This document shows positions 17,786 to 24,707 of a stretch of 40,797 bases of DNA, piece after piece. Position numbers and translations under genes: made by a program. Source of the DNA: a virus (lineage: Duplodnaviria; Caudoviricetes); the IMG/VR virus record IMGVR_UViG_3300035491_000325, positions 1 to 40,797 of that record; one strand, given 5' to 3'. The notes beneath the pieces are model-generated. The model searched no databases and was not told the origin of the DNA. It worked only from the letters and a program-made list of their open reading frames with translations. Each line of letters opens with the position of its first letter. Positions within the stretch are counted from its first letter, which is position 1.

Positions 17786-19436
17786 TCCAGAAGCCAAGGC
17801 GCTGAAAGCGCTGACCAAGCCCCGCAAGATCGATCTCGCCGCCGAGCTGGAGCTGCATGGCGTTGTCGTGCCCCAGGACATGGCCGATGCGGTACCAGAG
17901 AAAGAAGGCGTGTTCCTGCCGTACCAGCAGCGATGGTTCGACGACACCAGCCAGATCATGATTGCCGAGAAGTCGCGCCGTACCGGTCTCACCTGGGCCG
18001 AGGCCGGGCGCAACGTCATCAACGCCGCCAAGCCCCGCCGCCGTGGTGGCTGCAATACGTTTTACGTGGGCAGCAAACAGGAGATGGCGCTGGAGTACAT
18101 CGCCGCCTGCGCACTGTTCGCCCGCGCCTTCAACGAGATGGCCCAGGCCGACGTCTACGAGCAGACCTTCTGGGATGATGGGCGCCGAGAGGAGATCCTG
18201 GCGTACATGATCCGCTTCCCGAAGAGCGGCTTCAAAATCCAGGCGCTCAGCTCGCGCCCGAGCAACCTGCGCGGTCTGCAGGGCGACGTGGTGATCGACG
18301 AGGCGGCATTCCATGAATCCCTGGAAGAGCTTCTCAAGGCCGCCCTGGCGCTGACCATGTGGGGCAACAAGGTAAGGCTGATCAGCACCCACAACGGCGT
18401 CGACAACGCCTTCAACAGCTACATCCAGGACGCCCGCGAAGGCCGCAAGGACTACAGCATCCATCGCATCACCCTGGACGATGCCCTGGCCCAGGGGCTG
18501 TACAAGCGCATCTGCTACGTCACCAACCAGGAATGGTCGCCCGAAGCCGAGAAGCAATGGCGCGACAAGCTCTACAAGAACGCCCCCAACATCGAGTCGG
18601 CCGACGAAGAGTACGGCTGCGTACCGAAGAAATCGGGCGGAACCTATCTCAGCCGAGTGCTTATCGAGCAGGCAATGGTCGATGACCACTCCATTCGCAT
18701 CTACCGCTACGAGGCGCCCGAGGGCTTCGAGCAGTGGACGCCTGAAATGCGCGAGGCTGAGATCCGCGCTTGGTGCGAGGAGAACCTGGCGCCCGAGCTG
18801 GCGCGCCTGAACTCGCGCAATCGCCATACCTTTGGTGAAGACTTCGCGCGCCGTGGCGACCTTACGGTGTTCACGCCGCTGCAGATCGATCCGCTGCTGC
18901 GCAAGCGTGTGCCCTTCGAGGTTGAGTTGCGCAACCTCACCTATGAGGCGCAGCGCCAGATCATGTTCTACATCTGCGATCGCCTGCCGCGTCTGTCTGG
19001 CCTGGCGTTCGACGCCACCGGCAACGGCGGGTACCTGGCTGAGCAAGCGGCACTGCGCTATGGCGCCGGCCTGGTCGACCAGGTGCAACTGAACCTCGCC
19101 TGGTATGCCCTGTGGATGCCCAAGCTCAAGGGCGAGCTGGAGGCCTTCAACCTGCAGATCGCCCGCCACCAGACGCGCCTCGACGATCTGCTCTCGATCA
19201 AGGTGGACAATGGCGTGCCCGTGATCGACAAGGGGCGCACCAAGGATCTCCAGGCGCAGGACAGCAAGGCCAAGCGCCACGGAGATAGCGCGGTATCGCT
19301 GGTCATGGCGGTTCGGGCCAGCTTCATGGAAGGCGGCGCCATCGAGTTCACCGCACTGCCACGCCACAGCCGTGGCTTCGACAACGTCGATGACGACGAC
19401 AACGACATCACTCTTCCGGAACCGACAGCATGGTGA
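17778..19436 (+). CDS. Terminase large subunit (Mu gp28-like)
   Basis: LPYQQRW, EKSRRTGLTW, VVIDEAAFH, ISTHNG, GEDFAR, DATGNG and HGDSA motifs; GTG start after AAGGAAG. Confidence 0.93.
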   Translation: MSDPEAKALKALTKPRKIDLAAELELHGVVVPQDMADAVPEKEGVFLPYQQRWFDDTSQIMIAEKSRRTGLTWAEAGRNVINAAKPRRRGGCNTFYVGSKQEMALEYIAACALFARAFNEMAQADVYEQTFWDDGRREEILAYMIRFPKSGFKIQALSSRPSNLRGLQGDVVIDEAAFHESLEELLKAALALTMWGNKVRLISTHNGVDNAFNSYIQDAREGRKDYSIHRITLDDALAQGLYKRICYVTNQEWSPEAEKQWRDKLYKNAPNIESADEEYGCVPKKSGGTYLSRVLIEQAMVDDHSIRIYRYEAPEGFEQWTPEMREAEIRAWCEENLAPELARLNSRNRHTFGEDFARRGDLTVFTPLQIDPLLRKRVPFEVELRNLTYEAQRQIMFYICDRLPRLSGLAFDATGNGGYLAEQAALRYGAGLVDQVQLNLAWYALWMPKLKGELEAFNLQIARHQTRLDDLLSIKVDNGVPVIDKGRTKDLQAQDSKAKRHGDSAVSLVMAVRASFMEGGAIEFTALPRHSRGFDNVDDDDNDITLPEPTAW

Positions 19437-21592
19437 CCACTTCCCGCATCCTGGGCCCCGATGGCCAGCCGATCCAATTGGCCGAGATCCGCGAGCCGCA
19501 GACCGCCCACCTCACCAGCCTGCATCACGAAGTGGGCAATCACCCCTCGCGCGGCCTGACGCCCAGCCGCCTGGCCGCGCTGCTCGATGCCGCCGAGCAA
19601 GGCGATATCGTTGCGCAGTACGAACTGTTCGAAGACATCGAGGAGAAGGACGGCCACGTGTTCGCCGAGATGGGCAAACGCCGCCGCGCCGTGGCTCAGC
19701 TTGAATGGCAGATCGTCCCGCCCGACAACCCCACGGCCAAAGAGAAGGAAGCCGCCGCCGCTCTGGAGAGCCTGCTGGCCGGCCTGGACGACTTCGAGGC
19801 GATGCTGTTCGACGTGACCGACGCCATTGGCAAAGGCTTTGCCTGCCTGGAGTTCGACGGCTGGCACCGCGTCGACGGCGATTGGTTGCCGAAGGGCATC
19901 GATCACCGGCCGCAGACGTGGTTCCAGCTCACCCGTGGCGAACGCCGCCAGGAGATCCGCCTGCGCGGCTCGATGGGTGGCGAGCCGCTGCAGCCGTTTG
20001 GCTGGATCACCCACATCCACAAGGCCAAGAGCGGCTACCTGGAGCGCAGCGCGCTGATGCGTGTGCTGGTGTGGCCGTACCTGTTCAAGAACTACAGCGT
20101 GGGCGACCTGGCCGAGTTCCTGGAGATCTACGGCATCCCCATGCGCGTGGGCAAATACCCAGGCGGCGCGACCCAGAATGAGAAGCTGACCCTGCTGCGC
20201 GCCCTGGCCCAGCTTGGCCACAGCGCTGCAGGCATCATCCCCATCGGCATGGAGATGGAGTTCCTCAATGCCGCCCAGGGCGACCCGGCCGCGTTCAAGC
20301 TGATGATCGACTGGTGCGAGCGCACCCAGAGCAAGGTGATCCTGGGCGGCACGCTCACCAGCGGTACCGGCGAAGGCACCAATACCAACGCCCTGGGCAA
20401 CGTGCACAACGAGGTGCGCCTCGACCTGCGCGACTCCGATGCCAAGCAGTTGGCCGCCACCATCAGCCGTGACCTGGTGTACCCCATCGCCGTGCTCAAT
20501 GGCCTGGTGGACAACTGGAAGCGCTGCCCGCGCCTGGTGTTCCAGATCCAAGAGCCGGAGGACATGAAGGCCTATGCCGACGCCCTGCCGAAGCTGCTCG
20601 GGATGGGCTTCAAGATCGGGCGCCAGTGGGCTCAGGAGAAGGTGGCCATCCCCGAGCCGGCCGAGGGCGAGGATGTGCTGCAGCTGCAGGCCGAGCCGTC
20701 GGCGCCGACGCCACCCGAACCGCCGGCAGTGCGTGCGGCAGCTACCGCACAGAAGCCAGCCACTACCGCTGCAGATCGCCTGGACGACGACCTGCAGCCC
20801 ATCACCGGCCAGTGGATCACGCGGATCCGCCAGCTCGTCGAGCAGGCCGAGAGCCTGGAGCAGATCCGCGATGGCCTGGCCGAGTTGCTGCCCGATATGA
20901 CCCTGGAGCAGTACGCCGAGGCCATGGCCCAGGCGCTGGCTGCTGCTGCCCTGCAGGGGCGCCTGGATATCGTGCAGGAGGCTGCCAGTGGCACACCTCG
21001 CGCGGTCGCATCTAGCTACAATCCATCACAGCCGCGTGTACCAGCGGGGCACCCAGATGGAGGTCAGTGGATGGATGATGGAAGAACGCCGGATGTAGCA
21101 CCGGGATATCAACGGCTATACCACGGCAGCAGCGCGGGCGATGTTGGTGAGGTAAAAGATCAGGGTGTATTCCAAGGGCTGTTCACATCGCCAACTCCTG
21201 GTGCAGCTAAATCACACATCTACTCAGATAAGGGCGCTCTGTATTACACGGACATTGAAGAATCAAAGATTCTGGATACAAGAGCGCTGAACTACGATTT
21301 GGACGCTGATGAAGTCGCGAAGGCCCTGAAATCTTCAATGCGCGTATCAGACGATGACTTTGATGTCGCATGGAGCGCTGTCATCGAGGACTCGAATGTC
21401 TATGACATGGATGAAGAGGAGGTATTGCGGATTTTTCGCGCTGATGATCTCGGCGAGGCCTCTTTCGAGGCGCAACGAATCCGTGGGCAGGTAGCTAAGC
21501 GGCTCGGCTATCAGGCCATCGCCATGGACGATGAGCACGGCACCAGTTATCTGGTACTGCCTGGCGCCAAGATGAAGCGGTACAACCCGTGA
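19430..21592 (+). CDS. Portal protein (DUF935 / Mu gp29) fused to a C-terminal AcrIF11-like ADP-ribosyltransferase domain
   Basis: Residues 1-~520 are portal (FLEIYGIPMRVGKY, SKVILGGTLTS, ALGNVHNEVR). The last ~200 aa are a low-GC in-frame extension. Confidence 0.92.
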   Translation: MVTTSRILGPDGQPIQLAEIREPQTAHLTSLHHEVGNHPSRGLTPSRLAALLDAAEQGDIVAQYELFEDIEEKDGHVFAEMGKRRRAVAQLEWQIVPPDNPTAKEKEAAAALESLLAGLDDFEAMLFDVTDAIGKGFACLEFDGWHRVDGDWLPKGIDHRPQTWFQLTRGERRQEIRLRGSMGGEPLQPFGWITHIHKAKSGYLERSALMRVLVWPYLFKNYSVGDLAEFLEIYGIPMRVGKYPGGATQNEKLTLLRALAQLGHSAAGIIPIGMEMEFLNAAQGDPAAFKLMIDWCERTQSKVILGGTLTSGTGEGTNTNALGNVHNEVRLDLRDSDAKQLAATISRDLVYPIAVLNGLVDNWKRCPRLVFQIQEPEDMKAYADALPKLLGMGFKIGRQWAQEKVAIPEPAEGEDVLQLQAEPSAPTPPEPPAVRAAATAQKPATTAADRLDDDLQPITGQWITRIRQLVEQAESLEQIRDGLAELLPDMTLEQYAEAMAQALAAAALQGRLDIVQEAASGTPRAVASSYNPSQPRVPAGHPDGGQWMDDGRTPDVAPGYQRLYHGSSAGDVGEVKDQGVFQGLFTSPTPGAAKSHIYSDKGALYYTDIEESKILDTRALNYDLDADEVAKALKSSMRVSDDDFDVAWSAVIEDSNVYDMDEEEVLRIFRADDLGEASFEAQRIRGQVAKRLGYQAIAMDDEHGTSYLVLPGAKMKRYNP
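21110..21592 (+). other. acrIF11: AcrIF11-like anti-CRISPR ADP-ribosyltransferase domain (part of the portal ORF)
   Basis: LYHGS, GVFQGLF, AKSH, ALNYDL and QRIRGQVAKRLGYQAIAMDDEHGTSYLVLPG match, in order, the recalled AcrIF11 motifs LFHGS, GVFGGLF, ALSH, ALNYEI and QRLRGVLAVRLGYTSVEMEDEHGTTWLCLPG. Confidence 0.85.
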
Positions 21593-22815
21593 TTAGCGCC
21601 ACGTCGCTGCCGTTCCGCGAGCAGAACGAGTTCCTGCGCCGCAAACTCAACCTGCCTACCAACGGCTGGACGGACGTATACGGCCGCGAGAACGACTATG
21701 CATTCGTGGTGGCCGGCGCCAATCGCAACGACCTGGTGGCGGATTTTCACCAGGCTGTGCAGCGGGCGATCGAGGGCGGCACCACCCTGGAAGCGTTCCG
21801 CCAGGACTTCGACCGCATCGTCGCCAAGTACGGCTGGAGCTACAACGGCGGCCGCAACTGGCGCTCGCGGGTGATCTACGAGACCAACCTGCGCAGCAGC
21901 TATATGGCGGGCCGCTATGAGCAGCTGCTGGCCGTGCGTGAGGAGCGCCCTTACTGGCAGTACCTGCACAGCGATGCAGTGGAGTTCCCGCGTGAGAAGC
22001 ACGAGGCCTGGAACGGCATGGTGCTGCGCTGGGATGACCCGTGGTGGCAGTACCACTTCCCGGTCAACGCCTGGGGCTGCCAGTGCGGCGTGCGGGCGCT
22101 GAGCTATGACGACCTGGTGCGCATGGGCAAAACCGGCCCGGACACGGCGCCGCCGATCATCTTCGAGCAACGCACCATCGGCCAGCGCAGCCCGCAAGGC
22201 TCGCGCACGGTGACGGTACCTGTGGGTATCGACCCCGGCTTCGAGCACATCCCTGGCCAGTCGCGGCTGGCCAGCCAGGTGCCGGTACCGCGCCTGGGCG
22301 AGGAGCTGATCCCGTCCGCCGCGCCTGGCCTGCCGAACCGCCCGGCACCGGATGCGCTGCCGGCACCGCGCGTGATCGACCCCGAGACCCTGCCGCCTGC
22401 AGGCATGACCGATGCCGAATATGCCCGCCGTGCGCTTGATGCGTTCGGCGCGCAGCTTGATGCCGCCGAGCTGGTGACCGACGTCCTGGGCGAGCGCATT
22501 GCGGTCGGCCCGAGCATGTTCCAGCAACCTAACGGCACCCCAGCCGTGCAGGGTCAGGGCGAGCTGCTGCCGCTGCTGGCGGAAACGCTGTTGCAGCCAG
22601 ACGAGATCTGGACGCGCCTGGAGTACTCCGAGGCGGTGGGCAAATCGCAGGTGCTGCGCCGCTACCTGGGGCGCTTCAACTTGGGCCAGCAACTGACCCA
22701 ACTGGTGGTCATCGAGCTGGCCGGCAACGCCTGGAGCTGGGACATCGAGGCGGACGGCGCAGGTGTCGTCGAGCTGCTGCGCCAGGGCGTGCGCCTGTAC
22801 CGGCGCGAGGACTGA
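21589..22815 (+). CDS. Mu gpF-like head morphogenesis protein (MuF) with a C-terminal PBECR-like extension
   Basis: IYETNLRSSYMAGRY, PYWQY, HEAWNG and PVNAWGCQC; C-terminal LAETLLQPDEIW..RRYL. Confidence 0.9.
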   Translation: MISATSLPFREQNEFLRRKLNLPTNGWTDVYGRENDYAFVVAGANRNDLVADFHQAVQRAIEGGTTLEAFRQDFDRIVAKYGWSYNGGRNWRSRVIYETNLRSSYMAGRYEQLLAVREERPYWQYLHSDAVEFPREKHEAWNGMVLRWDDPWWQYHFPVNAWGCQCGVRALSYDDLVRMGKTGPDTAPPIIFEQRTIGQRSPQGSRTVTVPVGIDPGFEHIPGQSRLASQVPVPRLGEELIPSAAPGLPNRPAPDALPAPRVIDPETLPPAGMTDAEYARRALDAFGAQLDAAELVTDVLGERIAVGPSMFQQPNGTPAVQGQGELLPLLAETLLQPDEIWTRLEYSEAVGKSQVLRRYLGRFNLGQQLTQLVVIELAGNAWSWDIEADGAGVVELLRQGVRLYRRED

Positions 22816-22817
22816 CC

Positions 22818-23390
22818 ATGGCCGGTGTTACGCTTGAGTTCGATGCGGTTGGGGCATTGGCCATCATCAATGAGGCTGCAGCCGCAACGGCAAACCCTGC
22901 TGCCATGCTGCGTAACATGGGTGAATACCTGGCCTTCCAGGCATTACCCAGTCGCTTCGCCAGTCAGTCATCGCCGGATGGCACGCCCTGGCAGGCGCTG
23001 TCGCCGGCATACCTCAAGCGCAAGAAGAACAAGGACAAGATCCTGGTGCTCGATGGCTCACTGAGTAACGGGCTCAGATTCCAGGTCGTGGGTGGCGATC
23101 TGCTGGTGGGCACCAATATGGTCTATGGAGCGATTCATCACTTCGGTGGTGACATCGACATTGCCGCCCGCAGTCAGCAGGCCTACTTCCGCCAGGATGG
23201 CCGGAGTGGTGAAGTGGGCAGCAAGTTCGTCAGCAAGAGTCGTAGCAACTTTTCCCAGTCGGTCACCATCGGTGCCTACACCATCCAGATACCTGCACGC
23301 CCCTGGTTGGGTGTCAGCGACGATGACACCTATGAGTTGATCAACATCGCGATGAAGTACCTGATGCCAGGCGTTTGGGGCGGAGGCTGA
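22818..23390 (+). CDS. Virion morphogenesis protein (Mu gpG family)
   Basis: RFASQSSPDGTPWQALS, VGTNMVYGAIHHFGG, IPARPWLG. Confidence 0.9.
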   Translation: MAGVTLEFDAVGALAIINEAAAATANPAAMLRNMGEYLAFQALPSRFASQSSPDGTPWQALSPAYLKRKKNKDKILVLDGSLSNGLRFQVVGGDLLVGTNMVYGAIHHFGGDIDIAARSQQAYFRQDGRSGEVGSKFVSKSRSNFSQSVTIGAYTIQIPARPWLGVSDDDTYELINIAMKYLMPGVWGGG

Positions 23391-23552
23391 AAACGGCCCA
23401 GGAAGGCCCCTGGAGGCGTTTGGGGGCTGCCGTTGTATGCGTACGGGCGCCTCTGGCCGTTTCTGGGGCTGTTTGGGCGTTTATAAACACGGTAGGTGGG
23501 GTGGCAGTGACTCACCGGCGCACGTATCGCCGCAAAACTCCCCGCTGAAAGA

Positions 23553-23597
23553 TTTTTGCCCCGTCAAAATTACTTGCCCGGCCTGCAGCGCCAAGCT
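23553..23597 (+). promoter_or_regulatory. Late promoter box 2 (head operon)
   Basis: TTTTTGCCCCGTCAAAATTAC-N18-CAAGCT. Confidence 0.7.
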
Positions 23598-23603
23598 GCC
23601 GGC

Positions 23604-24707
23604 ATGAAGACAAAACGCCTCCCTCTCGCCGTTGCACTCGCCGCCTGCAGTTTCGTACTGGGGGCACCGGCTGCCGACAACACCATCTGGGTTCAGGTGA
23701 CCCCGGCTGGCAACTTCCTGCCGGCTGATGGTCGTGAGATCAAGGTGCCGTACTGGCATATCGATCAGGCGGTGGCCGCCAAGGTCATCGAGCGCTTCCA
23801 CGCCCGCAAGAACAAGCGCGTGGTCGACTACGAGCACCAGACGCTGCTCAAGGAAGAGAACGGTCAACCAGCGCCTGCCGCTGGTTGGTACACCGACCTG
23901 CAGTGGCGTGAAGGCGAAGGCCTGTTCGCCCAGGTGCAACTGACCGACCGCGCTGCCAAGTACATCGCCGAGGGCGAGTACCAGTATTTCTCCCCCGTGT
24001 TCCTTTACCACCCGACCACCGGCGACGTCTTGGACGTGCAGATGGGCGCGCTCACCAATGCCCCGGCAATCGACGGCATGCAGGAACTCAGCCTGCGCGC
24101 CGCCGCGTCGTTCGGCTGTTTCGATGACTCCCCAGAGGAAAACCCCGTGAACCAATTGCTGCTGGCGCTGATCGCCGCCCTCGGCCTGGCCGAGAACACC
24201 ACCGAGGAGCAGGCAGTCGCCGCGCTCTCCGCCCATACCACCAACCTGCGCAAGCTGCTGGGCCTGGATGAAAAGGCCGGTGGCGAAGCCATGCTGGCAG
24301 CCTGCACCGGCCTCAAGGCCAAGGCCGCTACCAGCGTCGACCCGTCGCAGTTCGTGCCGCTGTCGGTCGTCGAAGGCCTCAAGGCCGACATGGCCGCGCT
24401 GACCGCTCGCCTGGGCGAGCGCGACGAGAAGGATCTCGACAGCCAGATCCAAGGCGCCCTGGAAGATGGGCGCCTGCACAAGACCATGGAGGAATGGGCG
24501 CGCGACCTCGGCAAGAGCAACCGTGCCGCCCTGACCTTGTACCTGGACAAGGCACAGCCCATCGCGGCCATCGCCGGTAGCCAGACCGGAGGCAAACCGC
24601 CGGTGGCGGATGAGAAAACCGGTCTGACCCAGGACGAGCTGGCTGTGTGCTCGGCCATGGGCATCACCGCCGAACAGTTCAAGGCCGCCAAGGCCGAGGA
24701 GCAATAA
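23604..24707 (+). CDS. Prohead protease I (Mu gp32-like)
   Basis: VVDYEHQTL, APAAGW, EYQYFSPVF, ALTNAPAIDGM. Confidence 0.92.
   Translation: MKTKRLPLAVALAACSFVLGAPAADNTIWVQVTPAGNFLPADGREIKVPYWHIDQAVAAKVIERFHARKNKRVVDYEHQTLLKEENGQPAPAAGWYTDLQWREGEGLFAQVQLTDRAAKYIAEGEYQYFSPVFLYHPTTGDVLDVQMGALTNAPAIDGMQELSLRAAASFGCFDDSPEENPVNQLLLALIAALGLAENTTEEQAVAALSAHTTNLRKLLGLDEKAGGEAMLAACTGLKAKAATSVDPSQFVPLSVVEGLKADMAALTARLGERDEKDLDSQIQGALEDGRLHKTMEEWARDLGKSNRAALTLYLDKAQPIAAIAGSQTGGKPPVADEKTGLTQDELAVCSAMGITAEQFKAAKAEEQ
24147..24707 (+). CDS. Scaffold protein Z (in-frame internal start within protease I)
   Basis: AGAGGA precedes an in-frame GTG (VNQLLLALIAALGL); matches the I/Z arrangement of Mu. Confidence 0.65.
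   Translation: MNQLLLALIAALGLAENTTEEQAVAALSAHTTNLRKLLGLDEKAGGEAMLAACTGLKAKAATSVDPSQFVPLSVVEGLKADMAALTARLGERDEKDLDSQIQGALEDGRLHKTMEEWARDLGKSNRAALTLYLDKAQPIAAIAGSQTGGKPPVADEKTGLTQDELAVCSAMGITAEQFKAAKAEEQ

Follow-up and report, generated by a model that had tools for sequence, protein, structure and literature searches.

What is an AcrIF11-type anti-CRISPR enzyme doing at the end of a phage portal protein, and could it reach the next host cell inside the virion? This question is raised by the IMG/VR virus record IMGVR_UViG_3300035491_000325 (Duplodnaviria; Caudoviricetes), a provirus of 40,797 nucleotides that was analyzed over its entire length (the window) and in which the open reading frame (ORF) 19430-21592 on the plus strand encodes a Mu gp29-type portal joined to an ADP-ribosyltransferase (ART) domain of the AcrIF11 family. 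The initial annotation of this DNA had proposed that the portal frame runs past about 520 residues into a tail of about 200, and this holds: the ORF comprises 720 amino acids free of internal stops, of which the portal part (19430-20992, plus strand) accounts for the first 521, and no stop codon was found near position 20990. In each of two public sequencing runs (X1 and X2), one assembled contig of 724 nt spans 20899-21622, including both junctions, with 0 differences, at a depth over the junctions of 35.7 and 65.3, respectively. This evidence consists of assembled contigs rather than raw reads, and the runs, which possibly represent the source sample, are alike in year and habitat, so they exclude an assembly slip and do not count as independent occurrences. 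With a single contig over both junctions in two runs, an assembly chimera or frameshift was ruled out, and the portal-ART fusion is real. The portal part matches Portal_Mu (PF06074) at residues 64-406 (E 1e-103, 347.6 bits), and a query with the first 523 residues aligns with the JBD30 portal (8RKA) over residues 7-512 (E 2e-132) and with the Mu portal (9KHX) over residues 5-514 (E 1e-106). Beyond its core ring domains, which extend to about residue 393, lie a Pro/Ala linker and then a helical segment at the C-terminus, whose counterpart by homology is lacking in the mature Mu portal. The fused ORF is the sole portal match in the whole provirus, with a terminase (phrog_2) upstream and MuF downstream. 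A full-length AlphaFold model of the fusion, built on a 17-sequence portal alignment, was set aside (mean pLDDT 42.7).

The enzyme domain occupies residues 563-709 (21116-21556, plus strand), and the motifs quoted in the initial annotation are all found in it, namely YHGS at 564, GVFQGLF at 579, AKSH at 593, QRIRG at 682, and DDEHG at 700. Its proposed identity as an AcrIF11-like ART was upheld by a profile, a PDB sequence match, and a fold that agree with each other, the catalytic residues being intact. The NCBIfam model NF052490 is matched over positions 3-142 of 142 with 100.4 bits (cut-off 50), and the tail retrieves 6KYF (E 1.3e-13) and 8DWQ (E 9e-8) from 177,635 PDB sequences. An AlphaFold model of the domain (pLDDT 96) has 6KYF as its best Foldseek match (E 1.1e-11, TM 0.66/0.83) and 8DWQ as the second (E 9.5e-6), followed at rank 3 by a cyanophage pre-ejectosome chain (9K3A, E 6.7e-5) and then by RES/ParT and diphtheria-fold ARTs. 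Structurally aligned, the domain studied here and 6KYF are 28% identical, and the former has a longer helical region. H565, H596, and D701/E702 align with H20, Y46, and D146/E147 of AcrIF11 Pae2, and both D701 and E702 are invariant among 48 aligned sequences; double mutants at the catalytic residues abolish the activity of Pae2 (PMC12421852). No Pfam family, including ART-PolyVal (PF18760), was matched by the tail at E 0.1, and the VIP2/Alt profile (PF03496) gave no match either, the site being of the His type. On the strength of the profile, sequence, and fold matches, the tail belongs, as far as sequence and a predicted model can tell, to the AcrIF11 sequence family, and its active site looks intact. 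AcrIF11 works sub-stoichiometrically, Csy1 was the sole protein modified in Pseudomonas aeruginosa, and two AcrIF11 homologs that are about 27% alike both modify it (PMC12421852). For the present domain, the balance tips slightly towards Cas8f of type I-F CRISPR as the probable target.

The enzyme was brought in by an insertion that is recent and so far unique. A cassette of 600 bp (20993-21592, plus strand), in frame with the portal, replaces two bases (CG) of the usual overlap between portal stop and MuF start, an overlap present in 26 of the 27 closest loci, and a joint without the insert (20992-21593) is read as "skips 600, CG between" in the runs X1, X2, and X4. It consists of a short PRVPAG..GGQW peptide and the AcrIF11-family ART, and it supplies a new stop that overlaps the GTG start of MuF. 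With the MuF start and the stop overlap rebuilt in this way, the head operon is still readable. The GC content of the cassette and that of its third codon positions (GC3) are 0.54/0.54 vs 0.67/0.87 for the portal and 0.68/0.87 for MuF, and neither a terminator nor a promoter lies within 20993-21592. Among 37 related viral loci, 35 were translated (two partial matches were excluded), and 34 of these stop at the usual portal C-terminus, with lengths of 490-533 aa as read, the remaining one being out of frame. The run X4 bridges the site solely without the insert, X3 does not cover it, and X3-X24 hold small shares only. The earlier description was thus right about the fusion itself and had overlooked three things, i.e. 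the PRVPAG..GGQW peptide, an internal start codon at 21071, and the absence of the insertion from close relatives.

The peptide (Y530-W547; 21017-21070, plus strand), of the type YxPxQPRVPAGxxxGGQW, is not peculiar to this phage. A strict DNA pattern found 132 distinct copies of it in 140 viral stretches (about 160 estimated), and 72 ORFs from the 79 copies with long flanks were scanned for domains at E 0.001. Head domains in these ORFs comprised 15 HK97-type portals, one Mu portal, two MuF proteins, one prohead protease, and one DUF2213; the enzymes included nine CdiA-CT RNase A domains, three ribonucleases, and two VIP2-type ARTs, together with a Nudix domain, a zeta toxin, a deaminase, and a lytic transglycosylase, and many ORFs were without any family. 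The single other Mu-type portal (L065:2434-4593, minus strand), 26% identical to the one studied here, carries the same peptide just past the portal end, followed by an unrelated VIP2/Alt-type ART (PF03496), and a tail of this type was absent from all 22 related portals examined. The best homolog of the AcrIF11-family domain (P0008) has the same peptide-ART unit, with 51% identity over 195 aa, and since the peptide stands at the same distance in both, peptide and enzyme would have moved as one cassette; a search for the P0008 locus yielded two free 174-codon frames instead. Searched alone against proteins of 396-1260 aa, the peptide gave 80 candidates, of which 0 scored, residues 522-560 had no feature match in the protein atlas beyond sub-threshold structural rows, and no relevant paper on the motif was found in the open-access literature. 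In one contig (L054:1558-4823, plus strand), an HK97-type portal with the peptide and a CdiA-CT RNase A is followed by an 81-aa ORF and by a second cassette in which the portal end, the peptide, and the RNase A recur, then by a 107-aa ORF and a probable prohead protease gene; the arrangement resembles a polymorphic toxin-immunity array with a portal as its base. Two to three copies of the peptide per contig occur elsewhere too (e.g. L042, L045, L067, L093, and L080-L082).

Such arrays bear on one alternative, namely that the domain is a polymorphic toxin tip that kills or stalls non-lysogens in the manner of MuF toxins. The same peptide does precede RNases of the CdiA-CT type on HK97-type portals, where small ORFs lie downstream and, in L054, the cassette is repeated. 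However, the cassette studied here is followed by no immunity gene, as MuF starts within its stop codon, and AcrIF11 modified only Csy1 in P. aeruginosa (PMC12421852), so that we regard a toxin as very improbable, the least likely of the explanations weighed here. The lack of an immunity gene is what would be expected of a non-toxic, target-specific enzyme.

In its boldest form, to which we give a probability of roughly one in four (0.26), the reading that we put first is that of a virion-delivered type I-F anti-CRISPR, in which twelve AcrIF11 domains sit on the portal, are freed by a protease, and act at DNA entry; the peptide would then be the hallmark of an interchangeable module by which different ARTs and nucleases are attached to the portals of phages from unrelated families. 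Taken more broadly, as a delivered counter-defense enzyme of whatever target, the proposal comes close to even odds. Its steps may be pictured as follows. After insertion of the mobile peptide-ART cassette at the stop codon of the sole portal gene, the fused portal would nucleate the prohead, bringing in up to 12 enzymes per portal ring, and this incorporation we consider highly probable. In JBD30, the portal is dodecameric, with its crown and wing domains located within the capsid (PMC11445458), and by homology this favors the suggestion of the initial annotation that the C-terminus faces the capsid interior. A route for the release of the domain, which had likewise been suggested, is offered by analogy with Mu, where the virion structure lacks the C-terminal 124 residues of gp29, a loss attributed to protease I with reference to a 1996 paper (PMC11915804). 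Both the homologous C-terminal segment and a Mu gpI-type head protease (23556-24707, plus strand; PF10123, E 1.9e-103), the candidate cutter of the portal tail, are present here. Cleavage near residue 393, which is the Mu boundary as mapped by reading of the Mu portal alignment, would liberate a fragment of about 36 kDa with a pI of 4.5, or a smaller one. No relevant literature was found on the cleavage of Mu gpH, and a JBD30 supplement contained no portal processing data. Some of the freed copies would stay in the head and pass the tail with the DNA into the cell, where the enzyme would ADP-ribosylate a host defense protein, most likely Cas8f, before phage genes are expressed; given incorporation, we lean mildly towards such delivery. 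That the portal C-terminus tolerates large loads is indicated by natural single chains of 703-945 aa that join a Mu portal to MuF or to MuF and PBECR2, found in 8 of 33 long portals (P0178-P0182, P0205, P0207, and P0208). A portal survey had been called for in the initial annotation; that of long Mu portals revealed C-terminal cargo of this kind and no second AcrIF11 fusion (0/33). In favor of delivery also count the place of the peptide between head proteins and varied enzymes in other phages, the many large homologs with polyvalent-type domains, and the pre-ejectosome chain at Foldseek rank 3, while free homologs next to small helix-turn-helix genes speak for Cas8f as the target. Furthermore, AcrIF11 being catalytic and sub-stoichiometric, a dozen copies could suffice, which would hold only for a catalyst.

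A number of observations weigh against this reading. Its weak step is retention and ejection, as a folded, acidic 19-kDa domain would have to pass through a siphophage portal of about 21 Å, the channel width in empty JBD30 particles; the cleavage products of JBD30 are thought to leave through capsomer pores (PMC11445458), and the cleaved tail of the Mu portal is not known to remain in the head. A strong internal ribosome site could provide a route to the enzyme that requires no virion delivery. The nearest relatives of the domain are found mostly within polyvalent or other large proteins and not in acr-aca operons, and a tree made with IQ-TREE (46 rows of about 210 domains) groups it, with weak support (88/81), with P0008, P0009, and fused forms and apart from the free homologs linked to helix-turn-helix genes. 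In addition, the fusion appears to be a singleton. With the tail as query, tblastn found no match in the 37 related loci, 14 of 14 other listed members of the portal's cluster end without a tail at 521-523 aa, 0 of 364 phage records cover 80% of the fused protein, and no close copy of the cassette was found in the viral or metagenome contigs scanned, so that there is no conservation evidence for selection. The joint without the insert is also present in X1 and X2, at a depth of 32.5 and 52, respectively.

These data also suit a different explanation, by which the cassette is a recent, near-neutral or mildly harmful insertion, its enzyme being lost with the tail or lacking a target and the lineage perhaps being a dead end. 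The fusion is a singleton in all surveys, including that of Mu portals longer than 595 aa (no second copy in 33), its codon use is unameliorated (GC3 0.54 vs 0.87), an insert-less relative coexists with it, and the fusion of L065 is likewise missing from the 22 related portals. However, the cassette landed in frame, rebuilt the MuF start, and has kept its catalytic residues, its depth equals that of the insert-less relative in two runs, and two independent Mu-type portals have gained ARTs at the same spot. Moreover, rarity is overstated by clustering at 90% identity, which hides fusions behind short representatives: the present 720-aa protein itself sits behind one of 523 aa, so the counts are too low to an unknown degree. 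All in all, we judge a neutral insertion to be unlikely. A search for NF052490 in related proviruses gave 0 of 5, a weak result, as the controls gave no signal either. Over positions 19300-22900, the related insert-less lineage in X1 and X2, present at like depth, represents a natural competitor or control.

The internal ribosome site mentioned above consists of a GGAGGT Shine-Dalgarno (SD)-like sequence and, after a spacing of 6 nt, the in-frame ATG at 21071 (M548; 21059-21073, plus strand), a candidate start of a free enzyme of 173 aa. Hence the working product might be this free AcrIF11, acting in the producing cell either as an ordinary Acr or by leaving that cell immunosuppressed, while the fused copy would be incidental, cut off, and lost; this may coexist with virion delivery. 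At -10.0 kcal/mol, the site is the strongest among 112 internal in-frame ATGs of 14 late genes, and in none of the 132 other peptide copies do GGAGG and a start codon following the Trp occur together (GGAGG occurs in seven, a start in two). A Met is also found just upstream of the domain in P0008, its sister in the tree (P0009) begins at the matching place, and free homologs of 149-154 aa exist. On the other hand, Gly-Gly codons favor an SD-like sequence by chance, the site was noticed post hoc, and part of it is base-paired in the predicted mRNA structure. The sigma-70 consensus promoter is absent from 19000-24000, and with no promoter consensus nearby, the free enzyme would be made only late, after CRISPR acts on incoming DNA, and would be silent in the lysogen. 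Finally, the cassette arrived in frame and with a head-cargo peptide. We conclude that a free 173-aa enzyme may be made besides the fusion; that it is the working product seems doubtful, though a good deal less so than a neutral insertion.

The family to which the domain belongs appears in diverse settings. Free homologs with a small helix-turn-helix (HTH) gene downstream are 40% (L186) and 48% (L260) identical to it. The neighbors of L186 and L191, which NCBIfam left without a name, we take to be Aca1-like, and that of L260 had only sub-cut-off HTH matches in NCBIfam; the HTH protein of L186 found no match in the genome of the present phage, in a search run without a positive control. Homologs of at least 200 aa account for 115 of the 150 best and 19 of the 20 best among 477, length being a crude proxy, as fragments occur. 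LPD, ART-PolyVal, MuF_C, InPase, or Acb1 domains were detected in 15 of 24 large homologs and in 12 of 88 others (three of them sub-cut-off), and a portal domain in none of these 112. A FastTree phylogeny likewise places the domain among fused forms (44 rows, two of them short), and joining it to the HTH-linked L186, L191, and L260 is not rejected by the AU test (p 0.195). Many AcrIF11-family proteins (P0008-P0156; L180-L216) are 230-450 aa long with an unassigned N-terminal region, and other domains of the family occur in polyvalent proteins that reach 6,000 aa or, in P0085, joined to Acb1. One lies inside a 1144-aa protein of Desulfobulbus elongatus (L261:3912-7343, plus strand), the ends of which are presumably ArdC- and primase-like, suggesting conjugative transfer. 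Plasmids with a homolog at about 34% identity numbered 256 records, mostly enterobacterial, of which 241 are predicted to be conjugative, and among the rows listed the homologs are annotated as hypothetical proteins. Since AcrIF11-family domains are common in large phage proteins, the CRISPR specificity of the family as a whole is called into question.

In a further alternative, the ART, tethered to the portal or prohead, would act in the producing cell by modifying a host sensor or effector directed against the packaging machinery. Late expression would fit, the fused clade may have a target of its own, and the option has been raised for head-linked ARTs (PMC9503650). However, a tail inside a closed prohead would be shielded from cytoplasmic targets, and both tested AcrIF11 proteins act on Csy1 (PMC12421852). 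We therefore hold a tethered enzyme to be improbable, if somewhat less so than a toxin.

How does the delivered enzyme proposed here relate to known systems? With AcrIF11 (6KYF, 8DWQ, NF052490) the domain shares profile, fold, and the His and acidic catalytic positions, and the phage's close kin infect Pseudomonas; it differs in being attached, behind a peptide, to a structural protein that is essential, within a late operon and with neither a promoter nor an HTH regulator of its own. The absence of an aca gene beside the domain, already remarked upon in the initial annotation, is borne out, as MuF lies directly downstream and no HTH gene adjoins. A canonical acr-aca operon is therefore not what was found (the gene is fused, MuF is next to it, and a promoter consensus is missing), which is not disqualifying; acrIF11 Pae1 likewise lacks aca1 (PMC12421852), and acrIF11 has been treated as a free gene with aca7 (PMC12658196). 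In the main text of PMC12421852, the words "fused", "portal", and "polyvalent" are absent, and "fusion" is used only for a reporter. A closer parallel is provided by head-packaged effectors fused to portal or MuF: fusions of PBECR, 2H, InPase, Nudix, and ART domains have been described, their early injection has been predicted, and about 44% of phage ARTs are in packaging-type contexts (PMC5512222, PMC9503650). As in that class, the enzyme is borne on a portal C-terminus within the head module and would be predicted to be injected. Here, however, the cargo is of the AcrIF11 family rather than ART-PolyVal or Alt/VIP2 (the term "AcrIF11" is absent from the main text of PMC9503650), and a single enzyme arrived by a datable insertion of which near-isogenic insert-less relatives exist. 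Alt of phage T4, the tested model of a packaged ART, is also made late, packed into the head, and injected (PMC5512222), but it is a separate protein of the R-S-E clade that acts on RNA polymerase, in contrast to an H-type ART of diphtheria-toxin fold on a portal. MuF polymorphic toxins (PMC5576092, PMC3482391) resemble the fusion in that a head protein of a temperate phage carries at its C-terminus an enzyme that varies and is in some cases an ART; in the present case, the carrier is the portal, no immunity gene is seen, and the relatives lack a tip rather than bearing different ones. The portals of Mu (gp29) and JBD30 (gp32) are homologous over the full length, including the C-terminal segment, and gpI is present (PMC11915804, PMC11445458), but they end at 512 and 526 aa, respectively, without cargo. 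The fusion is thus neither an acr-aca operon nor a MuF toxin nor an Alt-type ART, and it would work like the head-packaged effector class.

The idea of portal- and MuF-fused ARTs that are injected early is already in print; the novelty lies in a cargo from a validated anti-CRISPR family, in a phage whose close kin infect Pseudomonas. The open-access literature, which misses most subscription papers, yielded no account of an AcrIF11 carried naturally on a portal or in a virion. When AcrIF11 is expressed from the phage genome, CRISPR is overcome only above a threshold phage population (PMC12421852); a packaged catalytic Acr, if it exists, would remove this delay, so that a single phage could beat CRISPR without failed pioneer infections. 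The locus also makes the old prediction that portal- and MuF-fused enzymes are injected testable, as the substrate of the cargo family is known and an assay for it is at hand, and the portal's close kin infect culturable Pseudomonas, while insert-less relatives about 90% identical offer a natural control.

The provirus is rated 100% complete and has a Mu-like gene order, running from the transposase, a transposition protein, and a late activator through the terminase, portal, MuF, gpG, gpI protease, and gpT capsid genes to a tail region with tube and tape measure. The closest isolated phages, at 70-72%, are the Pseudomonas phages H72, Fc02, and JBD25, which we take to be B3-like, and named proteins in the portal's 90% cluster come mostly from Pseudomonas or Ectopseudomonas. 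A PADLOC scan gave no match. The interval between gpG and gpI, which is a site of acr genes in D3112-like phages, is short here (23391-23555) and has no plus-strand ORF of 60 aa. The MuF gene (21589-22815, plus strand; PF04233 and PF18810), whose GTG start was rebuilt by the end of the cassette according to the junction alignment, itself ends in a PBECR2 nuclease-like domain, so that the head may hold two types of cargo.

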